Shown: positions 38,122 to 47,582 of the stretch, piece by piece
Position numbering within the stretch: position 1 is the stretch's first letter
Layout of the letters: every line of letters begins with the position of its first letter
NCBI GenBank assembly: GCA_963664305.2
Contig: CAXXLV010000002.1
Coordinates: 928,001-992,000, forward strand
Length of the DNA: 64,000 bases
Direction of reading: 5' to 3'
Source of the DNA: an uncultured Aliarcobacter sp.
Lineage (GTDB): Bacteria; Campylobacterota; Campylobacteria; Campylobacterales; Arcobacteraceae
The notes under the pieces: model-generated
Told to the model about the DNA's origin: nothing
Databases searched by the model: none
What the model saw: only the letters and a program-made list of their open reading frames with translations
Program-made: the position numbers and the translations under genes

Positions 38122-38490
38122 TTAAGAAGCAGTTGCTGCATCCTCACTTAAACTTAACATATAAGCTTTCATTTTCATCATCTCTTCTGTTGGGTATTGA
38201 TTTTCAACATTACCTCTTTCTACTTTTACATAAAAATCTTTAGATGAATCATTGTAACCAAAATTCATATTTGATAAAACTACTTCATATTTATTTGAAG
38301 AAGTCTGTTCATTTTTAGCAGCTTTAACATCAGAAGCTTCTTTGGCTTTTGATATAGCTTGTTGTTGTACTTGTTCCAAACTCTCTTTTGTTTTAACTTC
38401 AGAAGAATTTGAAGAAGCTTGAACTTTTTGCATTTCTAAAGCTTTATTATCGCTATATTGGTCTATTTTAGGTATCAATCCATATTCCAT
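38122..38490 (-). CDS. FlaG-like protein
   Basis: C-terminal NFGYNDSSKDFYVKV...QYPTEEMMKM matches the FlaG pattern. Confidence 0.65.
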   Translation of the reverse strand: MEYGLIPKIDQYSDNKALEMQKVQASSNSSEVKTKESLEQVQQQAISKAKEASDVKAAKNEQTSSNKYEVVLSNMNFGYNDSSKDFYVKVERGNVENQYPTEEMMKMKAYMLSLSEDAATAS

Positions 38491-38627
38491 AATAAGCTCC
38501 TTTCAGAAAAATCTTTTTATACGTTAATTATACAACAAATTCTTATTTTTTTTCAAAAAATTTATTTATTAAGTTTATTTTGATATTATTAGTTACAAAT
38601 TATATCAATTAAAAAAAGGAGTCCTGC

Positions 38628-38687
38628 TTGGAAGATAATTCCCCGAGGCAAAGTTTAGTTAAAAGTGAGAAAAAATGGAAATTTTAA
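38628..38687 (+). CDS. Putative leader peptide (19 aa, MEDNSPRQSLVKSEKKWKF) overlapping the CNNM gene start
   Basis: AAGGAG RBS, TTG 38628, TAA 38687; different frame from the CNNM ATG at 38675. Confidence 0.6.
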   Translation: MEDNSPRQSLVKSEKKWKF

Positions 38688-39730
38688 TCTTACTATTTGT
38701 TGCTGTTATTGGTACATCATTTTTATGTTCTATATTAGAATCTATTCTTTTATCTACAAATGTTTCTTACATCTCTGTTTTAGAAAAAAACAATCCTTTT
38801 GCTGGAAAACTGTTAAAAAAACTAAAAACTGACATTGATAAATCTATTGCATCAATTCTTATTTTAAATACTATTGCTAATACATTAGGTGCAACTCTTA
38901 TTGGAGTTCAAGCTCAAAATGTATTTGAAGAAGATGGTACATTAGTTATGGTTGTTTCAATTGTATTAACATTTATGATTCTATTTTTTGCAGAAATTAT
39001 TCCAAAAACAATTGGAGCAGTTTATTGGAAACAATTAGCTCCTTATGCACCAAGAATTATAAACTTTTTTATTTTTATAACTTATCCAATAATCATTGTA
39101 ACTCAATTTGTTACAAAAAAAATTGGTAAAGAAACAAGTGAAGCTAGTTCAAGAGAAGAGTTAATTCACTCTACACTTTTAAGTGAAGAAGAAGGTATTA
39201 TTGGAGATATGGAATCTCAAATTATTGAAAATACTCTGAAACTAAATAGTATAAAACTAAAAGATATACTTACTCCTCGTTCTGTTGTTTTTGCAATTGA
39301 AAAAAATACATTAATAAAAGACATAGTTGAAGACAAAAGAACTTTTAAATTTTCAAGAGTTCCAGTTTATGAAGGAACTATTGATAACATAGTTGGAATT
39401 GTTTTAACTAAAAAAATATTCAAACAAGCAATAACTGAGGGTGAAAAAAATCTTGAAGATATAATGAAACCTGTTTTTTCATTACATGCAAATATTCATG
39501 TTGCAAAAGCTTTAAATATGTTCATTCAAAAAAAAGAACATATGTTTATAGTTCATGATTCATATAATCAAACAGAAGGTATTGTTACATTAGAAGATTG
39601 TCTTGAAACTCTACTTGGTTTAGAAATTATGGATGAATTAGATACAACTGCTGACATGAGAAAACTTGCACTTAACAAAATGAAAGCAAAAAGAAAAGAG
39701 AAAGAAAAAAATTTAGAAAATATTAAATAA
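38675..39730 (+). CDS. CNNM/CorB-family (DUF21 + CBS pair) Mg2+/Co2+ transporter, paralog 1
   Basis: SFLCSILES; ILILNTIANT; EIIPKTIG; TPRS; FSRVPVY; GIVTLED. Confidence 0.92.
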   Translation: MEILILLFVAVIGTSFLCSILESILLSTNVSYISVLEKNNPFAGKLLKKLKTDIDKSIASILILNTIANTLGATLIGVQAQNVFEEDGTLVMVVSIVLTFMILFFAEIIPKTIGAVYWKQLAPYAPRIINFFIFITYPIIIVTQFVTKKIGKETSEASSREELIHSTLLSEEEGIIGDMESQIIENTLKLNSIKLKDILTPRSVVFAIEKNTLIKDIVEDKRTFKFSRVPVYEGTIDNIVGIVLTKKIFKQAITEGEKNLEDIMKPVFSLHANIHVAKALNMFIQKKEHMFIVHDSYNQTEGIVTLEDCLETLLGLEIMDELDTTADMRKLALNKMKAKRKEKEKNLENIK

Positions 39731-39821: not shown

Positions 39822-42185
39822 ATGAATAGCACTATTGATTATGAAAAATTAAAACTTTTTTATATAGGAAAAGAAAAAGTTGAAGATAGTTTTGTTCCAC
39901 TTGTTTATAAAAATAAAGATTTACTAACACATGCTGCAATTATTGGTATGACAGGAAGTGGAAAAACAGGACTTGGAATCTCTCTTTTAGAAGAAGCTGC
40001 TATTGATAATATTCCTTCAATTATTATTGACCCAAAAGGTGATATGACAAATCTACTTCTTACTTTTCCAAATCTAAATGGAAGTGATTTTGAACCTTGG
40101 ATTGAAGAACAAGATGCTACAAATAATGGATTATCTATTCAAGAAATGGCTAATAAAACAGCAACTTTATGGAAAACTGGACTTGAAAATGATTTCCAAA
40201 ACTCATCTAGAATTGAAAAGTTAAAAAATTCTGCTGACTTTACTATTTATACTCCAGGAAGTGATGCAGGTGTTCAAATATCAATTTTATCATCATTTAA
40301 AGCTCCTTCAAAAGAAGTTTTAGAAGATAATGATTTATTAATTTCACTTGTAAATTCAACTGTTTCATCTATTTTATCTTTAATTGCAGAACAAAATGAT
40401 TCATCTTCAAAAGAATCAATATTAATCTCTTCAATCTTTATGAACTATTTTACTTTAGGAAAAGATTTAACTTTAGAAGAACTAATCACTTTGATAGTTA
40501 CTCCACCATTTGCAAAAATTGGAATTTTTGATTTAGAGACATTTTTTGCTCAAAGTGAGAGATTAAAACTTGCATTAAAATTAAACACAATTATTGCAAA
40601 TCCATCTTTTAAAACTTGGATAGAGGGCGAAACTTTAGATATTTCAAACCTACTTTATGATGAAAATGGAAAAGCTAAAGTTTCTATTTTTTCAATTGCG
40701 CATCTAAACGATAGCCAAAGAATGTTTTTTGTAAGCCTTCTTTTAAATCAAATGGTTTCTTGGATGAGAAGACAAGAGGGAACTACTTCACTTAAAGCCC
40801 TACTTTATATGGATGAAATTTTTGGATATTTCCCACCAAATGGAAATCCACCATCAAAACAGCCAATGTTAACTCTTCTAAAACAAGCTAGAAGTTTTGG
40901 TATTGGAATTATTTTATCTACTCAAAATCCTGTTGATATTGATTATAAAGGTTTAGCAAATATTGGAACTTGGTTTATAGGACGACTTCAAACAAAACAA
41001 GATAAAGAAAAAGTAATTGATGGATTAAGTAGTGCAAATGAAGGAAATTTAGATAAAGATGAGATAATGAATCTTATATCTAGCCTTGAAAAAAGAAATT
41101 TTATTCTTAAAAATATAAATGAAGATGGAATAAAAATCTTTCAAACTAGATGGGCTTTATCTTATCTAAAAGGTCCTATTCCAAAAGATGGAATAAAAAA
41201 ACTAATGAGTGATAAAAGAATTAATTCATCTTCTAAAAAAGAAGAAAAAAATGAAGATACAATTACTCAAATAAATATAGAAAAAGGGATTGCTAAACCT
41301 ATAATCACATCAAATCTAAATGAAAAATATCTTTATGGTTCTCAAAACAGTGCTTATTATTTAGAACCTTATTTAGTTTGTTTTTGTGATATTCATTACA
41401 TAAATAGTACTAAAAATATAGATTTAGAAACAACAGAAATTTGTAAAATATATTTAGATGAAGAGATGAAAAATATAAACTTTGATGAGAAAGAAGAAGT
41501 AGAAAACTCTAATTTTGAAACAAAAGAGAGACCAAATTCACACTATTATGAATTACCTACTTTTATTCAAAGTGAAAAAGAGTTAAAAGCTATTGAGAAA
41601 GATTTTGTTGATTATATATATAGAAATTCTAAACTTACACTTTATAAAAATGATGAGTTAAAACTTACTTCAAAACAAAATGAAAGTTTAGGTGATTTTA
41701 AAATTAGATTACAAGATAGATTAAATGAAAAAATTGATTTAGAAGTTGAAAAACTTCAAACAAAATTTCAAAAAGAGAATGATTTAATAGAAAATAAATT
41801 ATCAAAACTTTATGAGAAACTTGAACGAGAAGAACAACAAGCAACATCAACAACTACTGATACATTAATTTCAATAGGAACTTCAATCTTAGGTGCTTTT
41901 TTTGGAAAAAGTTCAACAGCAACAACTCTTGGAAAAGTTGCAACTGGTGCAAGAGGAGCTACAAAAATCTTAAAAGAAAAAAATGATGTTAAATATGTGC
42001 AAAATGAAATAAATCAATTGGAAGAACAAAGAAACAGTTTAAAAACAATGCTTGAAAATGAAATTGAAAAAATCAACTCTACTAATTTAAGTTCAAATTT
42101 TCCAATCGAAGAGTTATTTATAAAACCAAAAAGAAGTGATATTTACAATGTTAAATTAGAACTTTTATGGCAGGAACAATTATGA
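39822..42185 (+). CDS. HerA/FtsK-like (DUF87-type) ATPase with C-terminal coiled coil
   Basis: THAAIIGMTGSGKTG; IIDPKGD; YMDEIFG; KQARSFG..STQNP. Confidence 0.85.
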   Translation: MNSTIDYEKLKLFYIGKEKVEDSFVPLVYKNKDLLTHAAIIGMTGSGKTGLGISLLEEAAIDNIPSIIIDPKGDMTNLLLTFPNLNGSDFEPWIEEQDATNNGLSIQEMANKTATLWKTGLENDFQNSSRIEKLKNSADFTIYTPGSDAGVQISILSSFKAPSKEVLEDNDLLISLVNSTVSSILSLIAEQNDSSSKESILISSIFMNYFTLGKDLTLEELITLIVTPPFAKIGIFDLETFFAQSERLKLALKLNTIIANPSFKTWIEGETLDISNLLYDENGKAKVSIFSIAHLNDSQRMFFVSLLLNQMVSWMRRQEGTTSLKALLYMDEIFGYFPPNGNPPSKQPMLTLLKQARSFGIGIILSTQNPVDIDYKGLANIGTWFIGRLQTKQDKEKVIDGLSSANEGNLDKDEIMNLISSLEKRNFILKNINEDGIKIFQTRWALSYLKGPIPKDGIKKLMSDKRINSSSKKEEKNEDTITQINIEKGIAKPIITSNLNEKYLYGSQNSAYYLEPYLVCFCDIHYINSTKNIDLETTEICKIYLDEEMKNINFDEKEEVENSNFETKERPNSHYYELPTFIQSEKELKAIEKDFVDYIYRNSKLTLYKNDELKLTSKQNESLGDFKIRLQDRLNEKIDLEVEKLQTKFQKENDLIENKLSKLYEKLEREEQQATSTTTDTLISIGTSILGAFFGKSSTATTLGKVATGARGATKILKEKNDVKYVQNEINQLEEQRNSLKTMLENEIEKINSTNLSSNFPIEELFIKPKRSDIYNVKLELLWQEQL

Positions 42186-46389: not shown

Positions 46390-47475
46390 TTAGGCTTGTT
46401 TCTTCAAGTCTAATTTTTTCTCTATTCTTTTTTTATCTATAAGCATTTTATTTTGGATTTTACATCTATTTTTTGCAAGAACTTGCATATCTTCAACTTC
46501 ATCCATTTCATCAACAATTTCAACTCCTAAAAGTGTTTCAATTGCATCTTCTAAAGTTACAACTCCACTTGTTTGTCCATAATTGTCTTCAACTATAAAT
46601 AGATGTGTTTTTCTATTTATAAATTGGTCAATTAATGCAGAAACAGGAAGATTTTCAGAGATTTTATGAACAGGAACCATTATATCCCTAATAATTGTGT
46701 CATCTCTTTCTTCAACACTCTCTTCTAAAATAGTTTGATTAAATACAATTCCTACAACATCATCAATAGTTTCATCAAAAACAGGAATTCTTGAATGAAC
46801 ATACATCTTGTCATCTTCAATAGCATCTTCAACTTTTATAGTTGATTTAAGTGCAAAAACAACACTTCTTGGAGTCATAATATCTTGAGTTTTGATATTC
46901 TTTAATTTGAAAAGATTTTCAATCAATGCACTCTCTTTTGAAAGAATAGAACCCTCTTTTTCTCCCATAGTAACAGCAGCCATAATTTCATCTCTTGAGA
47001 AGTTTGACTCTTTTTCTTTTCCTTTTGATATTAAATTAGTTATAAACATAGATAACCAAACTAATGGATATGTTATTTTAATAAAAAAGCTAATTAAATA
47101 AGCAGAAGGAATTAATAGTTTTTTCCAATAAACTGCACCTATTGTTTTTGGAATAATTTCTGAAAAATATAAAATTGCCAATGTTAATAAAACTGCAATA
47201 ATAGTTTCCATTTCTTGACCAAAAAGTATTTGAGCTTGCGCTCCAACACCAGCAGCACCCATTGTATGTGCAAATGTATTTAATATTAAAATAGAAGATA
47301 TTGGTTTATCAATATTTGATTTTAAATCTTTTAACATTTCAATAGCTGAGGAATTTTCTTTTTTAGATAATGATTCAATATATGAAGATGTACTTGAAAG
47401 TAAAACAGCTTCTAAGACTGAACATAAAAAAGAGACAAATAAAGCAACAAGAAGATAAGTAAACAAAAGGGTCAT
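46390..47475 (-). CDS. CNNM/CorB-family (DUF21 + CBS pair) Mg2+/Co2+ transporter, paralog 2
   Basis: SFLCSVLEA; ILILNTFAHT; SEIIPKTIG; MTPRS; HSRIPV; GVVTLED. Confidence 0.92.
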   Translation of the reverse strand: MTLLFTYLLVALFVSFLCSVLEAVLLSSTSSYIESLSKKENSSAIEMLKDLKSNIDKPISSILILNTFAHTMGAAGVGAQAQILFGQEMETIIAVLLTLAILYFSEIIPKTIGAVYWKKLLIPSAYLISFFIKITYPLVWLSMFITNLISKGKEKESNFSRDEIMAAVTMGEKEGSILSKESALIENLFKLKNIKTQDIMTPRSVVFALKSTIKVEDAIEDDKMYVHSRIPVFDETIDDVVGIVFNQTILEESVEERDDTIIRDIMVPVHKISENLPVSALIDQFINRKTHLFIVEDNYGQTSGVVTLEDAIETLLGVEIVDEMDEVEDMQVLAKNRCKIQNKMLIDKKRIEKKLDLKKQA

Positions 47476-47537
47476 TTTTCACCCTCTAAATAAGAAATAA
47501 ATAAGCCACACCTACGATAGGAGTCGTTTAAGTTCAT
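47472..47537 (-). CDS. Putative leader peptide (21 aa, MNLNDSYRRCGLFISYLEGEK) coupled to the CNNM start
   Basis: AAGGA RBS 8 nt before ATG 47537; TGA stop overlaps the CNNM ATG (ATGA). Confidence 0.65.
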   Translation of the reverse strand: MNLNDSYRRCGLFISYLEGEK

Positions 47538-47582
47538 AAAGTTAATCCTTTTAAAATTTTTAGGAAGGATTATACCATACTT

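Follow-up and report, generated by a model that had tools for sequence, protein, structure and literature searches.

What does a short reading frame with a strong ribosome-binding site do in front of a putative Mg2+ transporter gene whose own ribosome-binding site is weak? The locus that poses this question lies in a 64,000-nt stretch of DNA from an uncultured Aliarcobacter sp., the whole of which we call the window and by whose positions all coordinates are given. A preliminary description, made from the sequence alone, had observed that the strongest ribosome-binding site of the intergenic region, AAGGAG, serves TTG 38628 and not the transporter, that this TTG opens a 19-codon ORF ending 10 nt past the transporter ATG in another frame, and that the transporter's own site is weak; it proposed a translation-coupled sensor of Mg2+ (or EF-P) analogous to the MgtL leader of mgtA. 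The observations stand: AAGGAG is the sole AGGA or GGAG on the forward strand of the gap (a single GAGG occurs at 38645), the ORF stops at TAA 38685-38687 in a frame different from that of the transporter ATG at 38675-38677, and the Shine-Dalgarno (SD) sequence of the transporter is GTGAG. The features of the locus, all on the forward strand, are these.

38581..38589, forward: predicted extended -10 promoter (TGATATTAT), from sequence; transcription start predicted at about 38595-38596
38616..38621, forward: Shine-Dalgarno AAGGAG of the leader; GGAG/AGGA followed by a start codon in 89/90 orthologues
38628..38687, forward: leader ORF, TTG start, 19 codons, MEDNSPRQSLVKSEKKWKF; 13-nt overlap with the transporter gene
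38640..38648, forward: C-rich run of rare codons TCC CCG AGG, leader codons 5-7; kept at the nucleotide level
38664..38670, forward: 5' arm AGTGAGA of a hairpin predicted by folding; holds the transporter's weak SD
38675..39730, forward: CNNM/CorB-family transporter, 351 aa, paralog 1 (Pfam; match to 7m1t/7m1u)
38688..38694, forward: 3' arm TCTTACT of the hairpin predicted by folding, directly 3' of the leader stop codon
39751..39779, forward: terminator-like hairpin and T tract, 3' of the transporter; 1 found against 0.2 expected

The Pfam scan places CNNM (DUF21; PF01595, E 9e-27) and CBS (PF00571) domains in paralog 1 and finds no CorC_HlyC domain. The protein matches 7m1t/7m1u with an E value of 6e-31, and its named close homologues are from Arcobacteraceae. 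TpCorC, for which Mg2+ export is reported as demonstrated, is described as binding Mg2+ through S43, S47, N90 and E130 (PMC7875539). By alignment to 7m1t and by spacing, paralog 1 keeps this S/S/N/E site as S15, S19, N65 and E107; the Gly of the site, a ligand that binds via its main chain, is Ala106. Family membership and the retained site residues suggest that paralog 1 exports Mg2+.

A TGnTAnnnT promoter motif recurs in 70/89 orthologues, 28-38 nt 5' of the TTG in 57 of them. The extended -10 at 38581-38589 is not among the sites listed by a -35/-10 scanner; promoters of Campylobacterota are not known to carry -35 boxes. With this promoter-like element upstream and the terminator-like hairpin downstream, the transporter unit looks monocistronic. 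Contigs from RNA runs come from relatives only, at shares of 0.06-0.13, and give no readable level, strand or start; those of four studies begin at 38607-38614 and extend into the transporter, a weak hint of a transcript. On the far side of the gap lies a divergent 122-aa gene (window 38122-38490, reverse strand) with a sub-threshold FlaG match (E 9e-4) and a promoter-like site at 38556-38527, and 3' of the terminator lies a gene for a HerA/DUF87-type ATPase of 787 aa (window 39822-42185, forward strand).

Conservation and composition of the leader

Orthologue-level matches numbered 118 in 151 genomes of the family, and we examined 90 of these loci, the 30 best plus 60 chosen for spread over genera. 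A fixed rule (GGAG or AGGA, then a start codon) identifies a leader in 89/90, across 20 genera, with the start shifted by hand to the family-typical in-frame TTG at L061 and L082. At the exception, L038, the transporter gene lies directly behind another reading frame and has no leader. The conservation of ribosome-binding site and frame that the preliminary description looked for in Arcobacteraceae orthologues is thus present, and the pattern occurs in every genus examined, related loci not being independent of one another. The start codon is TTG in 87/89 leaders; TTG use in genome G000 lies between 32/1110 (an estimate biased low) and 187/1267 (biased high). Not one stop codon interrupts 1109 codons of the leader frame, whereas the two other frames contain 85 and 165, and shuffling would keep only about 34/89 leaders open.

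The distance from TTG to transporter ATG equals 2 modulo 3 in 85/89 loci, with lengths of 32-65 nt, and the leader stop falls at +13 in 83/89, at +1 in two, and at -3..0 in four loci where the frame has changed. Because these four still stop within -3..0 nt of the ATG, what is conserved is the position of the stop and not a frame for fusion. A programmed frameshift joining leader to transporter was rejected on the same grounds: in 85/89 the transporter frame is not open upstream, and the four other loci stop before the ATG. By sequence comparison we regard the leader ORF as confirmed to be real and conserved in SD, frame and composition, and we strongly infer that it is translated.

The beginning of the leader is acidic. 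Residue 2 is Asp or Glu in 87/89 leaders versus 9% of N-termini in the genome; residues 2-7 hold on average 2.2 Asp, Glu or Pro versus 0.7 in the background, and residues 2-5 hold 0.02 Lys or Arg versus 0.81. This acidic content is modest, with one acidic residue at positions 2-4 in 46/89 leaders and two in 42/89, and with at least four Asp, Glu or Pro among six residues in 2/89 (the leader in the window has 3 of 6), which we count against an explanation based on intrinsic ribosome destabilisation (IRD). The D/N-S-P-R codons, whose conservation had been suggested as a check, are not invariant. Residues 9-15 vary freely, with 50 non-synonymous versus 15 synonymous single changes within genera, which argues that the act of translation outweighs the product. 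The motif D/E-P-x-S, by contrast, recurs across families in differing codons (Ser as AGT, TCC or TCG), a sign of selection on the peptide. NCBIfam returned no family for three leaders of 21-25 aa, and Rfam no match for the leader region beyond a chance mir-71 hit (E 4.3).

That TTGGA..TCCC and AGG are conserved as nucleotides could instead mark a purely RNA-based element, a riboswitch or protein-binding site in which the ORF is incidental. We consider this extremely improbable: the frame is open and indels come in threes, Rfam gives no match, and the 5' part has no stable or covarying fold.

The transporter start and its proposed coupling to the leader

Folding of the window pairs the transporter SD with codons 5-7 of the transporter's own gene. 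The pairing probability of the SD region, 0.90, ranks among the highest 0.3% of 1415 genes, and none of 186 genes with a hydrophobic start reaches 0.9. The native duplex between ribosome-binding site (RBS) and coding sequence beats cross-genus swaps in 16/20 genera (p 0.003, uncorrected); the three control windows of the swap test were not significant. For covariation, 62 of the 89 sequences were used, with duplicates dropped and at most four per genus: 74% of cells are paired, 41 with two-sided changes, levels of pairing and of two-sided change that 0/500 shuffles match, and the register is the best of seven (the other six slid), in a test that followed eight negative or control duplex tests, with the register chosen on the same sequences and with genera that are not independent. 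RNAalifold finds no consensus pair in the 62-sequence alignment, and the register of the hairpin shifts between genera. The SD is open in the genus-mates L007, L019, L023 and L026 (pairing 0.05-0.19). A hairpin over the transporter SD is probable on this modelling, with moderate covariation.

Other structures fared less well. The stem tgcttgg/ccgaggca of the preliminary description, with codons 5-7 in one arm, can form, yet not beyond shuffled sequences (-7.1 kcal/mol, z 0.24), and all 7 of its pairs are possible in only 3/89 orthologues. No covariation supports a duplex between the C-rich run and the start (9/20 genera) or the SD (3/20) of the leader itself, and both were dropped; a column scan of 47 leaders of equal length gave only invariant helices of 3-4 bp.

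We propose, at a probability of roughly 0.55, that the leader ORF controls the CNNM transporter by translational coupling: the hairpin would hide the RBS, completion of the leader would melt the hairpin, and, owing to the acidic start, whether the leader is completed would depend on Mg2+. What comparison shows is that the SD, the TTG, the open frame and the placing of the stop at the transporter's start are conserved. The predicted pairing of the transporter SD with codons 5-7 of its own gene would seal that start, and the geometry suggests that a ribosome terminating at +11..+13 would open the hairpin and let the transporter be initiated. Where Mg2+ is low, ribosomes would abort by IRD on M-E-D-N-S-P, slow decoding of codons 5-7 perhaps helping. 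By analogy with MgtL, MgtQ and E. coli CorC, the gene would then be silent when Mg2+ is low and expressed when it is high, and its product, judged by family and site residues, would export the ion. Sensing of Mg2+ by the leader would follow from the same analogy, and loss of leader translation is predicted from the RBS hairpin to lower the transporter.

Under the logic of MgtL/MgtQ, stalling or abortion on the leader would activate the transporter when Mg2+ is low, by way of an alternative structure formed with the C-rich run. We hold this to be very unlikely. The run does pair strongly with the transporter start/SD in genera g9, g12 and g21 (-8 to -11 kcal/mol), and orthologues share an operon with mgtE in 6 loci; but as a family-wide duplex it was rejected, native pairing exceeding swapped pairing in only 6-7/20 genera, and after abortion it would block the start and not free it. 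All 89 loci, moreover, keep the leader stop at the ATG, and CorB-type genes of Salmonella are described as induced by high Mg2+ (PMC13691977). What survives of the earlier analogy with mgtA is a conserved, acidic-start leader ORF before a CNNM gene; the architecture is not mgtA-like, with no terminator-like site within the leader, a stop that overlaps the start, and a geometry implying that completion switches the gene on.

What the leader may sense, and comparison with known systems

Codons 5-7 had been called strikingly GC-rich for this genome, and they are unusual: TCC, CCG and AGG make up 0.7%, 1.1% and 3.8% of its Ser, Pro and Arg codons. Across the 89 leaders, codon 5 is TCC in 64, CCC in 19, CAG in 4, GCC in 1 and CGC in 1; Ser5 is always TCC (64) and Arg7 always AGG (43/43). 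A TCC, CCC, GCC or CGC lies within codons 4-6 of all 89 leaders and almost never past codon 6. IRD gives no reason why TCC/CCC and AGG should be so strictly conserved as nucleotides. Slow reading of these codons could account for it, and so could a weak hairpin covering the start of the leader.

The first of these raises the prospect that the sensor is decoding or initiation rather than the nascent peptide, with wobble-only reading of TCC/CCC/CCG/AGG, EF-P, or Mg2+-sensitive initiation at UUG gating leader completion. Methylation by TrmD is Mg2+-dependent and offers a possible route to slow decoding of Pro codons. The universal presence of such a codon in positions 4-6 is in keeping with this, as is a tRNA search of all but 8000 bases of G000, which found no cognate tRNA-Ser(GGA), tRNA-Pro(GGG/CGG) or tRNA-Arg(CCU); a tRNA-Ser(GGA) at relaxed threshold was discarded as a pseudo-hit with 24% GC. 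GAC CCC, furthermore, is often kept in the long CNNM genes described below, even at loci of 27-30% GC. Against it, ACC and CTC are equally rare (1.3%) in spite of cognate tRNAs in G000, so that rarity reflects AT bias and is undercut as a proof of slow decoding. Pairing between the C run and GGA at the start of the leader is another possibility (mean probability 0.40; the columns are invariant and show no covariation). Pro-Pro occurs in only 17/89 leaders and 38/89 have no Pro in residues 2-9, on which grounds EF-P was set aside as a general input, and with it the EF-P sensor suggested earlier. On balance we judge a decoding or initiation sensor to be distinctly unlikely. G000 has a single U34 tRNA type for each of the Val, Ala, Gly, Pro, Ser(UCN) and Arg(CGN) boxes, and it encodes a SeC tRNA.

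The best reading of the comparison with known systems is that the leader family is real and unannotated and probably acts in the manner of YoaL-mgpA, from an acidic start like that of CorC, outside the MgtL family. YoaL, the leader of yoaE/mgpA in E. coli and Salmonella, is likewise a small ORF, lying out of frame across the start of a Mg2+-stress gene with a CorC domain. The downstream gene is reported to need its translation, a yoaL start mutation strongly lowering yoaE-lacZ (10.1101/511675); mgpA and corC are described as induced by high Mg2+, with YoaL suggested as the mediator (PMC12421838). We liken the two by arrangement. The protein downstream of YoaL is reported to have a TerC and not a CNNM membrane domain and belongs to another phylum, whereas a probable RBS hairpin and the acidic TTG start were identified in the Arcobacteraceae leader.

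The acidic start itself recalls E. coli CorC/YbeX, whose N-terminus MSDDNSHSSDT is reported to abort translation in an Asp-dependent manner by IRD, a process enhanced at low Mg2+ (10.1101/2021.02.02.429294). Both have acidic and small residues after Met (E-D-N-S in the leader, D-D-N-S in CorC), and the proposed logic, an exporter on at high Mg2+, is the same; the CorC element, however, is in frame with its protein, whereas the Arcobacteraceae leader is a separate ORF that would act via coupling. MgtL of mgtA and MgtQ of mgtB in Salmonella and E. coli are also short leaders with Asp/Glu/Pro starts before Mg2+ transporter genes; MgtL is described as carrying EPDP (10.1101/2021.02.02.429294) and MgtQ as needing only Asp2 and Glu5 (PMC8092293). 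In these systems abortion turns importers on via alternative stem-loops, MgtA being a P-type ATPase, whereas the stop of the Arcobacteraceae leader overlaps the start of a CNNM-CBS gene, a predicted exporter that would come on once the leader is completed.

As the preliminary description had supposed, no leader for CNNM genes in Campylobacterota is described in the literature searched, a body that most subscription papers fell outside. The cj0183 promoter has reportedly been the subject of one published study. The main text of a C. jejuni Ribo-seq preprint, as available, names only amino-acid leaders and a few others and has no mention of corC, hemolysin, CBS or Arcobacter, though its supplements may list such ORFs; the available portions of PMC13009471 and PMC13285730 hold no passage relevant to CNNM leaders. 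How bacterial Mg2+ exporters are induced at high Mg2+ is an open question, corB and mgpB being described in a 2026 preprint as induced 'through unknown mechanisms' (PMC13691977), and the leader makes this question directly testable. The element spans only 80 nt, comes in 89 natural variants and separates the candidate inputs, namely acidic residues, rare codons, UUG start and RBS hairpin, and it adds an unannotated small-ORF family to the Campylobacterota.

Paralogs, other families and long CNNM genes

A second CNNM gene in the window has a leader of its own.

46390..47475, reverse: CNNM paralog 2, 361 aa, 47% identical to paralog 1
47466..47487, reverse: predicted RBS hairpin of paralog 2 (AGAGGGT / ACCCTTT), 7 bp, -8.8 kcal/mol
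47472..47537, reverse: leader ORF of paralog 2, MNLNDSYRRCGLFISYLEGEK, 21 codons, ATGA overlap; SD AAAGGA at 47546-47551

This leader contains a single Asp, a point against the IRD reading. At the orthologue L105 the SD hairpin reads GGAGTGT / ACACTTC, a compensatory change, and at L124 the leader, MTRYRLYNLHLFKK, ends at -5 and is without an acidic residue. The run CGT AGG TGT of the paralog 2 leader in the window is shared by three orthologues. In the genus-mates L111 and L113-L116 (also in L125-L128), promoter and leader of paralog 2 have been lost and the upstream gene overlaps it by ATGA.

Beyond Arcobacteraceae, leaders ending at -4..+4 precede 12/15 stand-alone homologues from other Campylobacterota families (those of L099 and L101 read by eye), with starts that include MSDPEPSS, MSDPYS and MTQSEPDS. 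In a named set the count is 10/14 stand-alone non-Arcobacteraceae Campylobacterota loci (L139 by eye). None was found in 6 homologues behind mgtE (2 of them Pfam-confirmed) or in 5 genus-mates coupled to an upstream gene. In other phyla, 0/34 homologues have an SD-led acidic leader, by an SD-based rule that misses SD-free lineages and with some starts misplaced. Folding of the start region is stronger in genes with a leader (median -7.1, n=23) than in operon genes (median -3.45, n=30; p 0.002), and the SD pairing probability of leader and operon genes does not differ (0.56 vs 0.57, p 0.33). In Sulfurimonas/Sulfurovum-type loci (L093-L098 and many others) mgtE is followed after 12-34 nt by the paralog-1 homologue, which often starts with TTG and is leaderless. 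That close orthologues stand in one operon with the importer gene mgtE is odd for an exporter expressed at high Mg2+, and we count it against that reading. In G000 itself there was no MgtE match, and its two corA genes have no leader.

A similar start occurs in frame on longer genes. Among the 30 best PF01595 matches in 61 genomes of the phylum (L215-L244), a long subfamily with CNNM, CBS and CorC_HlyC domains in 3/3 scanned, all 30 have an AAGGA(G)-type SD and a TTG start, residue 2 is Asp or Glu in 26, and 20 begin with Asp-Pro. Scored with a profile derived from the leaders, each of the 30 exceeds the 95th percentile of starts in G000; neighbouring genes start with TTG in 5/15 cases. The long gene of L234 begins MDSYPIFM and the leader of L053 begins MDSYPPIFM. 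From these sequences the leader is likely a detached form of the element that long CNNM genes carry in frame, by descent or by convergence. More tentatively, and short of an even chance, the CNNM exporters of Campylobacterota may share a portable ribosome-based sensor, SD-TTG-Asp/Glu-(Pro/Ser), in frame on long CNNM-CBS-CorC genes and, on short CNNM-CBS genes, set apart in a leader ORF whose translation opens a hairpin-sealed start. If so, Mg2+ export would be induced at high Mg2+ with neither a transcription factor nor a riboswitch.

All of the comparative evidence would fit equally well if the coupled leader carried no signal and served as a constitutive limiter of dose, its TTG, rare codons and acidic start fixing a low output of a transporter harmful in excess. 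TTG in 87/89 leaders and in the best 30 long genes alike is what such a limiter would show, as is the replacement of the paralog 2 leader by direct ATGA coupling in 5 genus-mates. A weak SD alone would nevertheless be a simpler way to limit dose, and it is specifically the acidic start, free of Lys and Arg and resembling tested IRD starts, that has been conserved; we therefore rate a dose limiter as unlikely and retain Mg2+-dependent completion of the leader as the preferred reading.

Some minor observations concern the spacing and structure of starts in other families. At L099, L101, L140 and L141 the leaders begin MSDSSS or MSDYSS, with AAGGAG unusually far (about 16 nt) upstream of the ATG. 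In the Sulfurimonas/Sulfurovum-type loci mgtE starts a few bases past a TATAAT box. At a leaderless homologue in Helicobacteraceae (L159:575-600), GGGAGCGCGTCTCC just 5' of the ATG forms a hairpin over the SD.
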